A stretch of 4,270 nucleotides of DNA from a virus (lineage: Duplodnaviria > Heunggongvirae > Uroviricota > Caudoviricetes), in IMG/VR virus record IMGVR_UViG_2579778894_000011. The stretch is one strand, 5' to 3'. Shown here in pieces: positions 1 to 4,270 of the stretch (positions within the stretch are counted from its first letter, which is position 1; the number at the start of each line of letters is the position of its first letter). The position numbers were made by a program, and so were the translations under genes. Under the pieces are notes generated by a model. It saw only the letters and a program-made list of their open reading frames with translations. It had not been told where the DNA came from and did no database searches.

Positions 1-25
1 GTCAGAACAAGTGCAAATGCTGTAT

Positions 26-214
26 TCATTGCCAGCATCCTTTTTGTATCGGACGTAAACGGGCCAGCATTGAAAGAATGCATATTTTATTTAATAACTC
101 CCGTTCGTGTTTTCTCTTGTTAATGGCATCTTCAGTAAATACAGGGTTACTGATAGTGACACCAATTTCAAAACAACCTTCAGACGTATTAACGTTTGGT
201 AATAACGTTTCCAT
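26..214 (-). CDS. dicB: Cell-division inhibitor DicB (62 aa); the track ORF 26..319 is an over-extension
   Basis: Minus-strand ORF. The internal ATG at 214..212 gives a 62-aa product, METLLPNVNTSEGCFEIGVTISNPVFTEDAINKRKHERELLNKICILSMLARLRPIQKGCWQ, matching my recollection of E. coli DicB in length and sequence. A GAGGA Shine-Dalgarno lies about 7 nt upstream on the minus strand. It sits downstream of DicF as in the known dicB operon. The 35 extra N-terminal residues in the track ORF have no ribosome-binding site. Confidence 0.8.
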   Translation of the reverse strand: METLLPNVNTSEGCFEIGVTISNPVFTEDAINKRKHERELLNKICILSMLARLRPIQKGCWQ

Positions 215-380
215 TATCGCGTCCTCAACAATGAATTTTGTGATGCGATGCCTGGTGCCTCCAGGTGACGTTAACCAGTTAACAATTAACGCCGGATACA
301 GAGAATCCACCCATAACACTGTTTTTGGTTTTAACTGTTCCGCGTGCGCTCAGCCGCATTCACCACATCACAAAATTCAC

Positions 381-402
381 TTTAAAAACGGCGGCAGAGC
401 AG
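381..402 (-). terminator. Possible leaky intrinsic terminator at the DicF 3' end (GC-rich segment followed by a T-run on the minus strand)
   Basis: Minus-strand RNA reads ...CUGCUCUGCCGCCG followed by UUUUUAAA (plus 381..388 = tttaaaaa). GGCGG and CCGCC segments within DicF can pair. dicB lies downstream, so any termination must be partial. Confidence 0.35.
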
Positions 403-441
403 TCACGGAGTAAAACTGATACCGCCAAACGTCACCAGAAA
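389..441 (-). ncRNA. dicF: DicF small regulatory RNA (about 53 nt, antisense regulator of ftsZ and other mRNAs)
   Basis: The reverse complement of 389..441 is tttctggtgacgtttggcggtatcagttttactccgtgactgctctgccgccg, which matches my recollection of E. coli DicF almost base for base. Its position between ydfC and dicB on the dicA strand is the known arrangement. The exact ends are processing-defined and cannot be fixed from sequence alone. Confidence 0.8.
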
Positions 442-466
442 ATTGATAACAGAGGGCGTTGCAGCG

Positions 467-503
467 GGGTTGTCACTTAAGCGTATGGTCAACCTGACAA
501 CCC
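467..503 (-). other. Stem-loop (9-bp perfect stem GGGTTGTCA / TGACAACCC, 19-nt loop) in the untranslated region just upstream of DicF in the operon transcript
   Basis: Perfect inverted repeat read directly: 467..475 gggttgtca and 495..503 tgacaaccc. There is no ORF on the operon strand here. Candidate RNA-processing or stability element. Confidence 0.4.
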
Positions 504-782
504 GGTGTCCTCAACGGGGGAAGGAATAACCCCGCCATACTTACCGCCGCGCCATTTCGCGGATTGCCACAACCGGAAGCGCACGGTCGACGAAAATTTA
601 ACGACAGGCTATCTATGAACCAGCTACCTCGCCGTGCGCTTTCGCGTTATGGTCTGACTTTTCAGGGAAATATCCTTTCAGTAAACTGTCAATGCCGGAT
701 GCTCACCCGTGTCCGGCGCACGCACTCCACCTCACCCGTGGAGAACTCCTTAATTACTAACCTTAGCTTTGTTGATTAGCTA

Positions 783-1001
783 CTAACGCGGGTATGTAAT
801 CATTCTGGCAATGCTTAATGCCGCTGCTTTTTCCAGATTGGTGATATCCTGCTCCAGAGCGGACAGATTTTCAGCCTGCTTAGCTCTGGCTTCATTGGCC
901 CATTTCAGATCCTGCGCTGCATTAATTTTCTGGTGCATCCACTCATAAAGTTCATCATCGGTATAGTCTGGCGCGATGATGACGGGTTCTCGTTTCTGCA
1001 T
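783..1001 (-). CDS. ydfC: Small prophage protein YdfC-like (72 aa), function unknown
   Basis: 72-aa minus-strand ORF with ATG at 1001..999 and a GAGGAA Shine-Dalgarno 5 nt upstream (plus 1007..1012 ttcctc). The position (third gene after dicA) and length match YdfC of the Qin dicB operon; identity is from recollection, not a search. Confidence 0.75.
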   Translation of the reverse strand: MQKREPVIIAPDYTDDELYEWMHQKINAAQDLKWANEARAKQAENLSALEQDITNLEKAAALSIARMITYPR

Positions 1002-1030
1002 ACTGATTCCTCGCGGTGCTGTTTCGCTTA

Positions 1031-1159
1031 TCAGCCGTTAGATTTTGCCGAACTGGAAAGCGCCTGTTTAAATTCGTTGAAGCTGAGAGCTTCTTCGCCT
1101 TCGGCAAGACCTTCGAAGTATTCTTCGTAAGCCTTTTCCATGATTGTGTCGAAATCCAT
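1031..1159 (-). CDS. ydfB: Small acidic prophage protein YdfB-like (42 aa), function unknown; absent from the supplied ORF track
   Basis: Hand translation of the minus strand gives MDFDTIMEKAYEEYFEGLAEGEEALSFNEFKQALSSSAKSNG, with ATG at 1159..1157 and stop TGA at 1033..1031. A GGTGA Shine-Dalgarno lies about 5 nt upstream. The start sits 1 nt after the ydfA stop (TGAtATG). Length and position match YdfB (42 aa). Confidence 0.7.
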   Translation of the reverse strand: MDFDTIMEKAYEEYFEGLAEGEEALSFNEFKQALSSSAKSNG

Positions 1160-1160
1160 A

Positions 1161-1316
1161 TCACTCACCTGAGTTTCTTTCCAGCCAGCGACGGGCACCA
1201 TTTTCGGTTTTAAACGTTTTGCTTTTGGTATACGTCATCGCGGTGAACGTACCGTCCTGGTTGGGAAACACGCCGTACACCAGAGATTCGTTGTTGCCAA
1301 GATCGATAGTATCCAT
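1161..1316 (-). CDS. ydfA: Small prophage protein YdfA-like (51 aa), function unknown; first gene of the dicB operon
   Basis: The internal ATG at 1316..1314 of track ORF 1161..1370 gives the 51-aa product MDTIDLGNNESLVYGVFPNQDGTFTAMTYTKSKTFKTENGARRWLERNSGE, with a GAGGT Shine-Dalgarno 5 nt upstream. The upstream ATG at 1370 has no ribosome-binding site. Length matches YdfA (51 aa). Confidence 0.7.
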   Translation of the reverse strand: MDTIDLGNNESLVYGVFPNQDGTFTAMTYTKSKTFKTENGARRWLERNSGE

Positions 1317-1393
1317 GCTGACCTCATTTCCCCTTAACGCTGGGGTAGCGGAACTGTTTGCTGAGAACACCGTGCGGTGTGTTGATGCAAATA

Positions 1394-1422
1394 AGATTAG
1401 CCATGGCTAACATATAGGTCAA
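1394..1422 (-). promoter_or_regulatory. Candidate sigma70 promoter of the ydfA-ydfB-ydfC-dicF-dicB operon (PdicB-like): -35 TTGACC, 17-bp spacer, -10 TAATCT on the minus strand
   Basis: Minus-strand read: cactTTGACCtatatgttagccatggcTAATCTtatttg. The -35 is plus 1417..1422 (ggtcaa) and the -10 is plus 1394..1399 (agatta). It lies about 75 nt upstream of the ydfA start and overlaps the palindrome at 1397..1410. Confidence 0.45.
1397..1410. promoter_or_regulatory. Candidate DicA operator: palindrome TTAGC-CATG-GCTAA overlapping the spacer and -10 of the candidate dicB-operon promoter
   Basis: Perfect 5-bp inverted half-sites separated by 4 bp. It belongs to the same family as the two palindromes in the dicA-dicC intergenic region (1893..1906 and 1943..1956). 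Confidence 0.5.
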
Positions 1423-1432
1423 GTGATTTTGT

Positions 1433-1448
1433 ATGTTATGGCTAACAT
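1433..1448. promoter_or_regulatory. Second palindrome ATGTTA-TGGC-TAACAT just upstream of the candidate -35; possible auxiliary operator or other protein-binding site
   Basis: Perfect 6-bp inverted arms with a 4-bp spacer, read directly. It shares the TGGCTAA core with the 1397..1410 site but has different half-sites from the TTAGY family. Confidence 0.3.
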
Positions 1449-1460
1449 GATTGATGTGGT

Positions 1461-1491
1461 AAAAGATAACTCATTGATGATGTTATCTTTT
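1461..1491. other. Perfect 10-bp inverted repeat AAAAGATAAC-(11 nt)-GTTATCTTTT overlapping the dicA stop codon
   Basis: Arms at 1461..1470 and 1482..1491. Read on the plus strand it is followed by TTTTATTTG, so it is terminator-like against antisense transcription into dicA. On the minus strand it is not followed by a U-run. Confidence 0.35.
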
Positions 1492-1890
1492 ATTTGTCCG
1501 CTGACGGGCTTTTAGTAATTCTTCAAAGAGTTTATTGAAGTTTTTTACTCGAGCTCGCATTTCGGCGAGCTGGGTATCCTGTTCTGATTCTGGCAGTGCA
1601 TTAAACAGCTCAAGGAGCTCTAGTTCTTTGGGGGATAAGGCAACTGGCTTCTCAACAGGTGGTGTTGGTTGCTTGTCTTCATCGCCAAATAGAATCCATG
1701 TTGGTGAGCATTGCAATACTTTGCTGAGGGCAAAAAGGTTCTTCCCTGTAGGTTCACTATCATCCCGTTCCCATTGTGATACAGACACATGGGAGATTTT
1801 CAGGGCTTTAGCAAGAGACCTTTGGGTGTGTTTGAGGTTTTTCCGACGATACCTAATGCGTTCGCCGATAGTTAAATTTTTTGTTTCCAT
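1483..1890 (-). CDS. dicA: Prophage repressor DicA (CI/C2-like HTH_XRE repressor, 135 aa)
   Basis: 135-aa minus-strand ORF, METKNLTIGERIRYRRKNLKHTQRSLAKALKISHVSVSQWERDDSEPTGKNLF..., with an N-terminal helix-turn-helix (QRSLAKALKISHVSVSQWE). It matches my recollection of E. coli DicA and is divergent from a Cro-like gene. Confidence 0.9.
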   Translation of the reverse strand: METKNLTIGERIRYRRKNLKHTQRSLAKALKISHVSVSQWERDDSEPTGKNLFALSKVLQCSPTWILFGDEDKQPTPPVEKPVALSPKELELLELFNALPESEQDTQLAEMRARVKNFNKLFEELLKARQRTNKR

Positions 1891-1892
1891 AG

Positions 1893-1906
1893 TTAGCTAA
1901 TGCTAA
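1893..1906. promoter_or_regulatory. Candidate operator in the dicA-dicC intergenic region: TTAGC-TAAT-GCTAA
   Basis: Inverted 5-bp half-sites separated by 4 bp, located between the dicA start (1890) and the candidate dicC -35. Confidence 0.5.
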
Positions 1907-1912
1907 ATCGTA

Positions 1913-1941
1913 TTGACTATGTTTTTGTTAACATCTATTTT
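1913..1941 (+). promoter_or_regulatory. Candidate sigma70 promoter for dicC: -35 TTGACT (1913..1918), 17-bp spacer, -10 TATTTT (1936..1941)
   Basis: Good -35 match with canonical spacing, about 30 nt upstream of the dicC ATG. The predicted transcription start falls inside the palindrome at 1943..1956. Confidence 0.4.
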
Positions 1942-1942
1942 G

Positions 1943-1956
1943 TTAGTTATGACTAA
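1943..1956. promoter_or_regulatory. Candidate operator: TTAGT-TATG-ACTAA overlapping the predicted dicC transcription start
   Basis: Inverted 5-bp half-sites separated by 4 bp, same family as 1893..1906 and 1397..1410. Confidence 0.5.
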
Positions 1957-1973
1957 CAATAAAGGTGTTTTAA

Positions 1974-2204
1974 ATGCTTAAAACTGACGCTCTTTTGTAT
2001 TTCGGTTCAAAAACAAAACTTGCACAAGCAGCAGGTATTCGTTTGGCTTCGCTTTATAGCTGGAAAGGGGATTTAGTTCCCGAAGGTCGCGCGATGCGTC
2101 TACAGGAGGCATCTGGCGGGGAGCTTCAGTATGATCCCAAAGTTTATGATGAATATCGTAAGACGAAGCGGGCGGGGCGGTTGAACAATGAAAATCACTC
2201 CTGA
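1974..2204 (+). CDS. dicC: Cro-like regulator DicC (76 aa)
   Basis: 76-aa ORF, MLKTDALLYFGSKTKLAQAAGIRLASLYSWKGDL..., with an AAGGTG Shine-Dalgarno 6 nt upstream. It is divergent from dicA and matches my recollection of E. coli DicC. Confidence 0.88.
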   Translation: MLKTDALLYFGSKTKLAQAAGIRLASLYSWKGDLVPEGRAMRLQEASGGELQYDPKVYDEYRKTKRAGRLNNENHS

Positions 2205-2709
2205 ACAGGCTCGTGAGGCTCTGGATGCCTGGATATGTCGACCAGGAATGACACAGGAGCAGGCGACGATATTAATCACTGAAGCATTCTGGGCTTTGAA
2301 AGAGCGCCCGAACATCGATGTTCAGCGTGTCACAGATGAAGGTGGCGCGGTTGATCAGCGAGCGCTTGGCGTTAATCGAGTGAAGATATTCGAACGCTGG
2401 AAGGCTATCGACACCAGGGATAAGCGTGAAAAGTTCACGGCGCTAGTGCCTGCGATTATGGAGGCTATCCGGATTAGTGATTTCAGGTTGTATCGTGAGA
2501 TCAGTGATGGAAAAAGTATTACGTACATGATCGCCGGGTTAAATAAAGAATATGGCGATGTGGTGGAATCCGGACTGCTTTTTGCAGATCCTGCCGTTGT
2601 AGATCGTGAAACTGACGAACTTATAGAAAAAGCAATTGCTTTCAAGCTTGCGTATCGACAGCAATACCAACAAAAAGCTGGATGGAATTATGAGTCTTCT
2701 TTTTGCTGA
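2188..2709 (+). CDS. YdaT-family prophage protein (173 aa), likely a CII-like regulator; often labelled toxin YdaT in databases
   Basis: 173-aa ORF directly after the Cro-like gene, overlapping its 3' end by 17 nt. This position is held by YdaT-family proteins in Rac/Qin-type prophages. The family assignment is from gene order and general resemblance, not a search. Confidence 0.6.
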   Translation: MKITPEQAREALDAWICRPGMTQEQATILITEAFWALKERPNIDVQRVTDEGGAVDQRALGVNRVKIFERWKAIDTRDKREKFTALVPAIMEAIRISDFRLYREISDGKSITYMIAGLNKEYGDVVESGLLFADPAVVDRETDELIEKAIAFKLAYRQQYQQKAGWNYESSFC

Positions 2710-3655
2710 ACGCCCACTGGTTATAAACACGCAGCTGGCAATGAAAATTGGCTTAAACGAAGCCATTGTTTTGCAACAACTGCACTACTGGTTGAGAGAT
2801 ACCAACTCCGGCATGGAATGTGATGGTGTTCGCTGGATTTATAACACAACGGAACAATGGCTGGAACAGTTCCCATTCTGGTCAGAGTCAACGTTAAAGC
2901 GCGCGTTTGCAAGTCTGAAAACGCTGGGGCTTTTGCGTTGTGAAAAGCTCAATAAATCAAAGCGCGATATGACCAATTTCTACACGATCAACTACGGGAG
3001 CGAGCTTTTAGATGGTGGCAAATTGAGCGAATCCATCGGTTTAAAATGCGCCGCTCCATCAGGTCAAAATGACACGATGGAAGAGGTCAAAATGAAACGC
3101 TCCATTGGTTCAAAACGACTCAATGTCATCGGGTCAAAATGGCCTGATGATCTTACAGAGAATACAACAGAGATTACTACAGAGAATAAAAAGACTTCTC
3201 GTCCGGAAGCTTCGCAACCGGACCCGCAGACGGTTGAACAGGATTTTTTAACCCGACACCCTGACGCGGTTGTGTTCAGTGCGAAAAAACGCCAGTGGGG
3301 CAGCCAGGAAGATTTGGCGTGTGCGCAGTGGATCTGGGGGCGAATCGTGAGTCTTTACGAGCAGGCCGCCAGCGATGATGGCGAGATTTCGCGACCGAAA
3401 GAACCCAACTGGACCGCATGGGCCAACGACGTGCGCACAATGCGGATGCTGGATGGCAGAACTCACAGACAAATTTGTGAAATGTTTGGTCGGGTGCAGC
3501 GGGATCCATTCTGGGTAAAAAATATCATGAGTCCGTCAAAGCTTCGCGAAAAATGGGATGAACTGGTTATCCGCCTGGGGCGTTCGTTTGTACAGCGTTG
3601 TGTGAATCATATTTCTGAGCCGGATACCGAAATTCCGCCGGGCTTCAGGGGGTAA
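2690..3655 (+). CDS. Phage replication initiator (replisome-organizer, O-like) protein; start uncertain (2690 or 2744)
   Basis: Long ORF (track 2636..3655). An N-terminal winged-helix-like segment (MSLLFAERPLVINTQLAMKIGLNEAIVLQQLHYW...) resembles phage replisome-organizer N-terminal domains. Iteron-like repeats and an AT-rich block sit inside the coding sequence, as with lambda O and ori. The ATG at 2690 overlaps the upstream stop by 20 nt. Confidence 0.7.
   Translation: MSLLFAERPLVINTQLAMKIGLNEAIVLQQLHYWLRDTNSGMECDGVRWIYNTTEQWLEQFPFWSESTLKRAFASLKTLGLLRCEKLNKSKRDMTNFYTINYGSELLDGGKLSESIGLKCAAPSGQNDTMEEVKMKRSIGSKRLNVIGSKWPDDLTENTTEITTENKKTSRPEASQPDPQTVEQDFLTRHPDAVVFSAKKRQWGSQEDLACAQWIWGRIVSLYEQAASDDGEISRPKEPNWTAWANDVRTMRMLDGRTHRQICEMFGRVQRDPFWVKNIMSPSKLREKWDELVIRLGRSFVQRCVNHISEPDTEIPPGFRG
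3062..3142. repeat. Four iteron-like direct repeats (GGTCAAAATGA core) spaced about 23 bp apart inside the replication gene; candidate origin iterons
   Basis: Copies at 3062..3072 (ggtcaaaatga), 3085..3095 (ggtcaaaatga), 3107..3118 (ggttcaaaacga) and 3132..3142 (ggtcaaaatgg). The last is embedded in a local dyad, TCATCgggtcaaaatggccTGATGA. Confidence 0.55.
3155..3188. repeat. AT-rich block with three 12-bp-periodic repeats ACAGAGA(A/T)TA immediately after the iterons; candidate DNA-unwinding region of the origin
   Basis: acagagaata at 3155..3164, acagagatta at 3167..3176, acagagaata at 3179..3188. It encodes a low-complexity linker (TENTTEITTEN) in the replication protein, analogous to the lambda ori layout. 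Confidence 0.5.
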
Positions 3656-3695
3656 GTGTTAATTTCTGGTCATGAGGTAATTTTCAGGAGGGCTT

Positions 3696-4118
3696 GTGGC
3701 AAAAGTTTTTACACAAGAAGAGCGGGAAAAAATTAAAGGGCAGGTTGTTGAACTCGTACGCCGGAGTGGGCGTGAGACGTTACGGCAACTGGAAGTCAAG
3801 ACAGGTGCGACAAGATATCTGATGAGCGTTCTCGCAAGAGAGCTGGTTGCCAGCGGCGATGTATACAACTCTGGTTACGGGTTATTCCCGTCTGAACAGG
3901 CGCGTAAGGACTGGCAAAATGCCCGTAAAAAGCTCTCAAGGGCAAAGCTGAAGGAACCATCTGCGGTTGATCCGGACCTTATCTGGTCATTACCTGACGG
4001 AGAAATACGTCGCTACGACAGGCGTCAGAACATAATCTGTCGCGAGTGCCGGAAGAGTGAAGTTATGCAGCGCATACTAGCATTCTATCAGGGAAATGCT
4101 CGATATTTATTGAAGTGA
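3696..4118 (+). CDS. Hypothetical prophage protein (140 aa), unknown function, GTG start
   Basis: ORF with a strong AGGAGG Shine-Dalgarno (3686..3691) 4 nt upstream of GTG at 3696. It has no Walker A motif, so it is not a DnaC/P-type helicase loader. A basic stretch and a single CxxC (ICRECRK) are present. Confidence 0.6.
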   Translation: MAKVFTQEEREKIKGQVVELVRRSGRETLRQLEVKTGATRYLMSVLARELVASGDVYNSGYGLFPSEQARKDWQNARKKLSRAKLKEPSAVDPDLIWSLPDGEIRRYDRRQNIICRECRKSEVMQRILAFYQGNARYLLK

Positions 4119-4180
4119 TGAGATTAAAGTTTATTAGTTCAGATATTGATTGGCTCTTTTGTGGAGTAGGGTAGAGTTAG

Positions 4181-4270
4181 GGAAGGTGCGAACAAGTCCC
4201 TGATATGAGATCATGTTTGTCATCTGGAGCCATGGAACAGGGTTCATCATGAGTCATCAACTTACCTTCG
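4181..4270 (+). mobile_element. IS5 left end (terminal inverted repeat GGAAGGTGCGAACAAG at 4181..4196), continuing beyond the window
   Basis: The sequence from 4181, ggaaggtgcgaacaagtccctgatatgagatcatgtttgtcatctggagccatggaacagggttcatcATGagtcatcaacttaccttcg, matches my recollection of the IS5 terminus and the start of its transposase. It is immediately preceded by TTAG (4177..4180), which fits the IS5 target preference (YTAR). Confidence 0.85.
4249..4270 (+). CDS. insH: IS5 transposase InsH, first 7 codons only (MSHQLTF...); truncated by the window edge
   Basis: ATG at 4249 followed by codons for SHQLTF, matching the N-terminus of the IS5 transposase as I recall it (MSHQLTFADSEF...). Confidence 0.8.

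Follow-up and report, generated by a model that had tools for sequence, protein, structure and literature searches.

A putative replication origin with lineage-specific iterons and a conserved 12-mer block inside the O-like initiator gene of a Qin/mEp460-type prophage

Dimers of the bacteriophage lambda initiator O bind and bend a set of iterons and open an A+T-rich region, after which P brings in DnaB (PMC5043065). Read with the tools used here, the lambda origin consists of four TCCCTCAAAACGAGGGA-type palindromic iterons with a CAAAAYG centre followed by a 40-bp A-rich region, all inside O (PMC5043065). Rep of plasmid pSK41 (319 amino acids) binds four Rep boxes in the middle of its own gene through a 120-amino-acid N-domain and carries a host-specific C-domain; the boxes, GTGTCAAAAGGACAC, lie 22 bp apart and are followed by AT-rich repeats, and the protein can do without the linker for which the origin codes (PMC5703833). 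In RepA_N replicons, of which pSK41 is one, the iterons are semi-palindromes that converge on a poly-A tract (PMC7145576). Here we analyze a stretch of 4,270 nucleotides of viral DNA (IMG/VR record IMGVR_UViG_2579778894_000011; Caudoviricetes), hereafter the window, in which a similar arrangement lies within the gene for a 321-amino-acid O-like initiator (2690-3655, + strand; open reading frame [ORF] list and PHROG 391). By analogy with these systems, we consider it probable (about 0.82) that positions 3011-3190, in the linker-coding part of this gene, are the origin of theta-type replication of a lambdoid prophage of the Qin/mEp460 type. That the prophage once replicated autonomously from 3011-3190 is a reasonable inference.

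A pattern search of the window found exact copies of GGTCAAAATG at 3062, 3085 and 3132, all on the + strand, and a two-mismatch copy, GTTCAAAACG, at 3108 on the same strand. These correspond to the four iterons at intervals of about 23 bp in an initial annotation of this DNA, which had placed the copy at 3108 in another register, at 3107. The array and its spacing stand, but the count must be raised to five clear copies and one degenerate copy, as a two-mismatch fifth copy, GTTTAAAATG, at 3039 (+ strand) and a degenerate sixth, GGCAAATTG, at approximately 3016 had been overlooked. In a repeat search, five 37-nt copies could be stacked with spacings of 23, 23, 23 and 24. Each unit is an imperfect palindrome of about 23 bp (24 bp in one case) around an A-tract, for example CATCAGGTCAAAATGACACGATG. 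Together the iterons span 3011-3149, one every 23-24 bp: the degenerate iteron 0 (3011-3033, GATGGTGGCAAATTGAGCGAATC), which is in register with the array; iteron 1 (3034-3056, core GTTTAAAATG at 3039); iteron 2 (3057-3079, CATCAGGTCAAAATGACACGATG), the best palindrome in the array; iteron 3 (3080-3102, core GGTCAAAATG at 3085); iteron 4 (3103-3126, CATTGGTTCAAAACGACTCAATG); and iteron 5 (3127-3149, CATCGGGTCAAAATGGCCTGATG). At the position of iteron 0, Klebsiella phage Kp4886-3 and a 330-amino-acid Escherichia coli variant of the initiator carry a good copy, GAGGTCAAAGTGA.

The cores of iterons 1 to 5 fall in ORF frames 1, 0, 2, 1 and 1. Their occupancy of all three reading frames rules out a repeat at the protein level. 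In 300 dinucleotide-preserving shuffles of the window no phased array of five arose, the longest having three members, and synonymous recoding of the peptide produced such an array 5 times in 1000. The iterons are DNA features, explained neither by chance nor by the protein sequence. Neither the repeat search nor Tandem Repeats Finder detected another iteron array in the window. The window also contains no DnaA boxes and no IHF consensus sites, and a DnaA-dependent origin was set aside for lack of a DnaA box.

Directly 3′ of the iterons, at 3152-3190, lies a block of 12-mers, CTT ACAGAGAATACA ACAGAGATTACT ACAGAGAATAAA, which we presume to be the unwinding and helicase-entry element. The three ACAGAGA(A/T)TA repeats with a 12-bp period described in the initial annotation were recovered both by Tandem Repeats Finder (3155-3188, period 12, 2.8 copies, 86% matches) and by a pattern test, which placed ACAGAGAWTAM units at 3155, 3167 and 3179. 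With at most one mismatch, the window contains four such units (the fourth at 298) where 0.23 are expected, a number reached in none of 200 shuffles, and three ACAGAGA copies arose in 2 of 1000 synonymous recodings. The G+C content is 30% at 3150-3199, compared to roughly 42-52% on the left, in the iteron region, and up to 65% just to the right. The block is also the least stable 40-bp stretch within the ORF (z = 2.3 relative to the whole window). The segment is thus AT-rich, as had been noted, to a moderate rather than an extreme degree.

To place the iterons and block relative to the protein, we examined the initiator, which RefSeq labels a hypothetical protein. It matched PHROG 391 ('replication initiation O-like') with E = 1.8e-94, amino acids 17-321 aligning to profile positions 11-298 of 298. 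AlphaFold2 predicted an N-domain (amino acids 1-110), a disordered segment (111-203) and a helical C-domain (204-297). The N-domain, encoded at 2690-3019 on the + strand and presumed to be the iteron-binding dimer module, has predicted local distance difference test (pLDDT) values of about 71-92 and the order of helices and strands typical of a winged helix. In the segment between the two folded domains pLDDT is below 50. Since the DNA at 3011-3190 codes for amino acids 108-167, the proposed origin encodes, on this structural model, a disordered interdomain linker. This agrees with the interdomain linker proposed in the initial annotation, and the junctions of natural domain swaps, described below, fall in the same segment.

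The N-domain is not that of lambda O. We detected no similarity between it and the lambda O N-domain, Phage_rep_O (hhalign probability 0.3; no Pfam match). The closest PDB matches of the predicted N-domain in Foldseek were 4pql, 5kbj and 4pt7 (E = 0.03-0.25, probability at least 0.99), the first two of which we take to be the RepA_N initiators of pTZ2162/pSK41. RepA_N plasmid initiators are therefore the closest in predicted fold, with weak E-values; 4PT7 is listed among the Staphylococcus aureus RepA (RepA_N-family) structures (PMC7145576). The initiator had no match to RepA_N (PF06970) or to any other Pfam family, and Pfam and NCBIfam contain no family for its N-domain or for three other N-domain types that occur with the block. 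A profile search of PDB sequences with the initiator alignment, from which the C-domain columns were absent, gave no match. At the sequence level, the N-domain shares 43-72% identity with its counterparts in phages of Klebsiella, Pantoea, Pseudomonas, Staphylococcus and Bacillus.

The C-terminal part has different affinities. Amino acids 183-294 are 39.3% identical to the C-domain of lambda and 933W O (E = 6e-18). The assignment of the gene as a replication initiator holds by its PHROG family and its C-domain, but the C-domain is the only part that resembles lambda O. The C-terminal tail, FVQRCVNHISEPDTEIPPGFRG (amino acids 300-321, encoded at 3590-3652 on the + strand), ends in ...VNHISEPDTEIPPGFRG, which is nearly identical to the last 21-23 residues of DnaT (PDB 2ru8_A, 6aep_A and 9zbt_D) and matches positions 159-179 of the NCBIfam DnaT model. 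Tails of the form P.GFRG(A) also occur on relatives with unrelated C-domains. The tail looks like a short linear motif that was borrowed from, or is common to, the host primosome; a 2026 paper on the preprimosome does not discuss the DnaT tail. By descent the initiator is a chimera of an N-domain that is RepA_N-like in predicted fold, a lambda-O-like C-domain and a DnaT-like tail.

Three observations on related proteins were made along the way. The protein database contains 448-amino-acid proteins in which the product of the YdaT-like gene is joined to the initiator. It also contains many 'partial' proteins of 110-210 amino acids that consist of the N-domain and apparently end in the linker, possibly where assemblies or gene callers break at the repeats. 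The N-domain family is further found on several 'plasmids' classed as non-mobilizable and 42-48 kb in size, from E. coli, Bacillus cereus, S. aureus, Fructilactobacillus ixorae and Levilactobacillus brevis. These may be phage genomes, extrachromosomal or circularised, with this type of origin.

Comparison with lambda bears out the lambda-type layout of the initial annotation: dyad-symmetric iterons about two helical turns apart and an A-rich block on the same side, inside the initiator gene. The layout is equally that of pSK41. In both lambda and the window the origin lies in the initiator gene between the regions for two domains, as also in the O/ori of Shiga toxin (Stx) phages; the iterons are dyad-symmetric, have a CAAAAYG-like A-tract centre and are about 20-23 bp apart; an A-rich block with a purine-rich top strand follows directly 3′ of them; the C-domains are homologous (39% over amino acids 183-294); and the gene order is repressor, cro, cII-like gene, initiator. 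The two differ in that the N-domains are unrelated by sequence, that the iterons of the window number five to six and measure 23 bp (four of 19 bp in lambda), that the initiator gene is followed by a DUF977 gene where P follows O in lambda, that the window initiator carries the DnaT-like tail, and that its block is a sequence-conserved 12-mer repeat where that of lambda is a generic A-rich stretch.

RepA_N replicons can be compared in the same way. Initiators of pSK41 and pTZ2162 and the Vibrio PLE RepA share with the window initiator a length of about 320 amino acids, a winged-helix N-domain of about 110-120 amino acids, a linker for which the origin codes and a C-domain that can be exchanged (PMC5703833), and RepA_N N-domains are the best structural matches of the N-domain. 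Compared directly with those of pSK41, the window iterons fit the RepA_N description, being semi-palindromic, centred on poly-A and located mid-gene. In contrast, the CAGAGAnTAC block is absent from pSK41, the C-domains of RepA_N initiators are DnaD-like or DnaG-binding rather than lambda-O-like, and RepA_N elements are plasmids whereas the window is from a phage or prophage. The block can also be set beside the 13-mers and DnaA-trios of oriC and the 13-mers of RK2 and F (TrfA/RepE). As in those elements, direct repeats with a length close to one helical turn adjoin the initiator-binding array, where the region is least stable. Initiators capture one strand of such opened regions (reviewed in PMC5043065). 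The window block is only moderately AT-rich and has no sequence resemblance to these elements. No description of the block was found in the searchable literature, whether by its 12-mer sequence, by the TENTTEI peptide or among phage origins located inside genes, the sequence matches being chance matches to primers; a paper on the Stx-phage replication region makes no mention of iterons, DUF977 or DnaT. Thus, while the origin architecture is already known, the sequence-conserved 12-mer block appears to be new.

We compared the locus with its relatives. The initiator of phage mEp460_ev081 is 96% identical and is accompanied by the same iterons, the same block and the same DUF977 neighbour. Klebsiella phage Kp4886-3 has an N-domain that is 62-72% identical (tblastn and alignment), six iterons and the block, but an unrelated C-domain. 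In Pantoea phage AH07, where the N-domain is 53-57% identical (53% by tblastn), there are five iterons with a 23-bp period, followed downstream by a block identical to that of the window over at least 34 nt. IMG/VR contig L040 combines a different N-domain and different iterons with the block and C-domain of the window, and phage vB_EcoM-689R6 combines the C-domain with a different N-domain and different repeats and lacks the block. In Kp4886-3, L040 and vB_EcoM-689R6, these natural domain swaps have their junction at the origin.

Among lineages whose N-domains have diverged, the iteron sequence differs while its position and period remain constant and the block is unchanged. Relative to the window (core GGTCAAAATG), the core is GGGCAAATTGCCC in AH07 (N-domain 57% identical, or 53% by tblastn), GGACAAAATGRCCC in Staphylococcus phage 42E (47%) and GTGTCAAAATGAATCA in Bacillus phage TP21-L (43%); it is GGACAATTTGTCC in IMG/VR contigs L018 and L027 and CGTATCAAAATGATACG in Staphylococcus-like contigs. 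Such a difference in iteron sequence is also seen for O and its iterons in lambdoid phages. For a sample unbiased with respect to the origin DNA, we scanned IMG/VR for all codings of the N-domain peptide IGLNEAIVLQQ, a degenerate-pattern scan that replaced an N-domain alignment search, which had returned only near-identical E. coli loci. About 111 distinct origin regions were obtained, the contigs having 32-60% G+C. All those inspected follow one plan, in which lineage-specific palindromic iterons centred on AAA(A/T), with cores such as CGTATCAAAATGATACG, TGGCCAAAATGGCCA, CTACCCAAAATGGGTAG and GTTGCTCAAAATGAGCAAAC, are followed by CAGAGAnTAC units. At least one unit was present in 106 of the 111 regions, and two to five units in 90. 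In four cases counted by hand, the iteron centre was about 18-21 bp from the block.

Just to the right of the block in the window, at 3201-3223, is an inverted repeat, GTCCGG-N11-CCGGAC, with an internal palindrome, GAAGCTTC; lambda likewise has a palindrome to the right of its A-rich region (L135, approximately 1167-1195). The inverted repeat is also kept in vB_EcoM-689R6, which has only the C-domain in common with the window. Since it is kept with the C-domain alone, it may just encode a conserved SRP(D/E)ASQPD peptide.

The block is very widespread. Its 30-nt core (3155-3184) is nucleotide-identical in at least 119 IMG/VR contigs, where it lies downstream of several iteron types. A scan for ACAGAGAnTACnACAGAGAnTAC in which each species was represented by a single genome recovered two or more ACAGAGAnTACn units in at least 120 species genomes, where by our estimate approximately one match is expected by chance. 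The matches listed come from Pseudomonadota, Bacillota, Cyanobacteria, Chloroflexota, Patescibacteria, Desulfobacterota, Nitrospirota and other phyla, and the block-carrying phages and prophages range in G+C from 0.22 to 0.63. Among the 120 matches listed, the motif is read ACA GAG in the longest ORF in 106, usually mid-gene in an ORF of 250-450 amino acids. The N-domain family of the window accounts for 55 of the 120, and the remainder include at least two or three further winged-helix-like N-domain types outside Pfam. In 81 of 106 diverse genomes, three or more phased repeats were present in the 170 nt upstream of the block; a control segment taken from the same gene had them in 5 of 106, and shuffled sequence in 3 of 106. 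We set aside L347, an archaeal match in another frame of a 1048-amino-acid ORF, as probably an unrelated tandem repeat; the L321 match resembles a restriction specificity subunit and is, we presume, probably another such repeat.

The block is nearly invariant from 0.22 to 0.63 G+C, lies on a fixed side of the lineage-specific iterons and close to them, and is retained with at least three or four different N-domain families, which is consistent with a sequence-specific origin element. We tentatively suggest, as a possibility that we would not yet favor over its negation, that ACAGAGAnTACn repeats are such an element in a very large and mostly unannotated superfamily of winged-helix phage and prophage initiators across phyla. 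Their reader could be the initiator itself, through a conserved surface and in the manner of DnaA-trios or of TrfA on 13-mers, or else a replication protein common to all hosts, and the repeats would mark the entry site of helicase or primase. Primase trinucleotides (CTG, on the bottom strand) were also considered as a possible cause of block conservation. In IMG/VR contig 2563366940_000001 (L241), the block is broken after its first unit by IS (insertion sequence)-like DNA that starts with tgtgaaccgccccggg and has an ORF beginning MTKNTRFSPEV...; this insertion would be a natural knockout of origin and initiator.

The mosaic junctions raise the question of whether the block is identical in so many genomes through use as a recombination linker at a module boundary, spread horizontally in recent times, and not through replication. 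Comparison of Kp4886-3, L040 and AH07 with the window puts junctions exactly at the block, and the 30-mer is the same among contigs with unrelated flanks. We regard this explanation as unlikely, since the units persist with small changes across phyla and across G+C contents of 0.22-0.63, where recent exchange is implausible. Moreover, the number, spacing and frame of the units vary while the core CAGAGAnTAC is kept, and the block never switches sides relative to the iterons and stays near them (where the distance was counted by hand, it was about 18-21 bp to the iteron centre). A role as recombination linker and a role in replication are not exclusive.

Iterons need not mark an origin. Those of plasmids also act in copy-number control and incompatibility, and the array could by the same token be a regulatory or titration site (a roadblock, an autoregulatory operator, or a locus for incompatibility or exclusion), in which case the true origin would lie at another site. 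The inhibition phenotype that cloned lambda ori/O fragments give, as described in PMC3349717, would also fit. We give this slightly less credence than the recombination linker: the same three-part layout is the mapped origin in lambda (PMC5043065) and in pSK41 (PMC5703833), an operator needs no adjoining conserved block of low stability, and the window has neither a second iteron array nor a DnaA box.

Codon usage allowed us to separate constraint on DNA from constraint on protein. A scan for all synonymous codings of TENTTEITTE gave 129 sites, of which 123 were nucleotide-identical; in the six that were not, the only changes were exchanges of ACA and ACT at Thr codons. In the IGLNEAIVLQQ sample, the ratio of ATT to ATC at Ile codons was 93:0 in the block and 719:618 in the rest of the same ORFs, and the ratio of ACA plus ACT to ACC plus ACG at Thr codons was 512:19 in the block and 843:880 in the rest. 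The variable position of the unit is a second codon position (N/I/T/S), and the neighbouring third position is T in 99% of units. In TP21-L and other low-G+C (Firmicutes-type) contigs, some units are 10-11 bp apart and in another frame. As a control, we used unrelated T/E-rich repeat proteins that were also caught by a degenerate T-E-x-T-T-E-x-T-T-E scan; these use other codons, ACT/ACC and GAA. By these counts, codon choice in the block shows selection on DNA and not on the peptide. The repeats are kept in homologues and the block is free of synonymous drift; absence of the repeats or such drift is what the initial annotation had named as grounds for seeing them as a by-product of the protein sequence. 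That the iterons and block merely reflect a low-complexity linker peptide (IGxK..., TENTTEITTE), with no role as DNA, is accordingly very improbable and largely refuted: although the linker has short recurring motifs (SIGLK, SGQN, IGSK and TENTTEITTEN), the 12-bp period is a multiple of 3 and ACA GAG is the usual reading among the matches listed, the iterons spread over three frames, synonymous recodings seldom recreate the array or the block, synonymous alternatives are nearly absent while N, I, T and S replace one another freely at the variable codon, the units of TP21-L and other low-G+C contigs are read in another frame as IPETTQRIPETT, and unrelated T/E-rich repeat proteins make other codon choices.

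A model that accommodates an origin at 3011-3190 can be drawn by analogy with lambda O/ori-lambda and pSK41 Rep/ori, from which binding, opening and helicase recruitment are all extrapolated. Dimers of the winged-helix N-domain would bind to the array of five or six palindromic iterons, each about 23 bp long and centred on an A-tract, and would bend the DNA; the resulting stress would open the adjoining three ACAGAGAnTAC units. The position of the block, its modest instability and its constant location 3′ of the iterons are the reasons for assigning it this unwinding and helicase-entry role. The lambda-O-like C-domain and the DnaT-like tail might then bring host DnaB(-DnaC) to the opened strands. 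Since there is no helicase loader gene nearby, this last step is conjecture.

Several points weigh against an origin at this site. The role is assigned from sequence and analogy, and the absence of a loader gene counts here as well. Among close relatives (75-100% identity), the iteron cores are only modestly more conserved than the spacers (entropy 0.16 versus 0.27, p = 0.08). The structural likeness of the N-domain to RepA_N initiators is weak by E-value (0.03-0.25), and BLASTP of the initiator against pSK41 Rep detected no sequence similarity. The AT-richness of the block is moderate (z = 2.3), intergenic stretches of the window are less stable, and in high-G+C hosts the block is about 45% G+C. 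Thus, easy melting alone does not account for its conservation. Lastly, the codon test is partly circular, as the units were located with an anchor that itself contains GAG and the first ACA; this circularity does not touch the ATT and ACW counts, and the GAG count was not relied on.

If the origin is as proposed, prophages of many phyla would share one plan, consisting of a segment for a winged-helix N-domain, lineage-specific palindromic iterons centred on poly-A and a universal CAGAGAnTAC block. Origins and initiators of this kind could be located in unannotated genomes with the block as a simple sequence tag, and the block could also serve as a handle on how initiators that lack an AAA+ domain, such as lambda O and RepA_N proteins, open DNA and load helicase. 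A module with no loader gene and an initiator with a DnaT-like tail suggest a route of host DnaB-DnaC recruitment unlike that of lambda P. For E. coli, the analysis would identify the origin and initiator of a common prophage type in a gene labelled 'hypothetical protein' in RefSeq.

Gene content, profile searches and genome comparison place the window in a Qin/DicA-type lambdoid prophage of E. coli. Among 5,426 complete E. coli genomes, 456 contain 80% or more of the window; the prophage type with this origin and initiator is very common in the species. On the - strand are ydfC, ydfB and ydfA, dicA (1483-1890) and the DicF antisense RNA (389-440; Rfam RF00039, 72.5 bits). DicF occupies its expected place in the dicA-ydfABC-dicF-dicB operon of Qin-type prophages, and this position establishes what the element is. 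The + strand carries dicC/cro (1974-2204), the cII/YdaT-like gene (2188-2709), the initiator gene, the DUF977 gene (3696-4118; Pfam DUF977, E = 2e-30; PHROG 142 'Ren-like exclusion protein') and the left end of IS5 (4181-4270).

The initial annotation had suggested that the IS5 insertion left the replication module incomplete. However, IS5 begins at 4181, 62 bp past the DUF977 stop codon, in intergenic DNA, and interrupts no annotated gene. In the best genome matches, bases 1-4180 are present at approximately 100% identity with no IS5 at the site, identity to the IS-free genomes ending at 4180. These genomes and mEp460_ev081 have the same initiator and DUF977 gene, and no P or DnaC gene is annotated near the initiator in the regions inspected of mEp460_ev081 and the IS-free E. 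coli locus. Judging from this gene content, a module with no loader is the natural state for the initiator family. The DUF977 gene occupies the slot after the initiator where lambda carries P and then ren. Its position is kept in mEp460_ev081 and in IS-free E. coli genomes, and it may therefore belong to the replication module, or it may not. IS5 starts directly after TTAG, and the remaining bases match IS5-family elements at many E. coli sites. In IS-free relatives, a gene for a SMEK-domain protein lies about 250 bp beyond the IS5 site (L001, 13371-14270).

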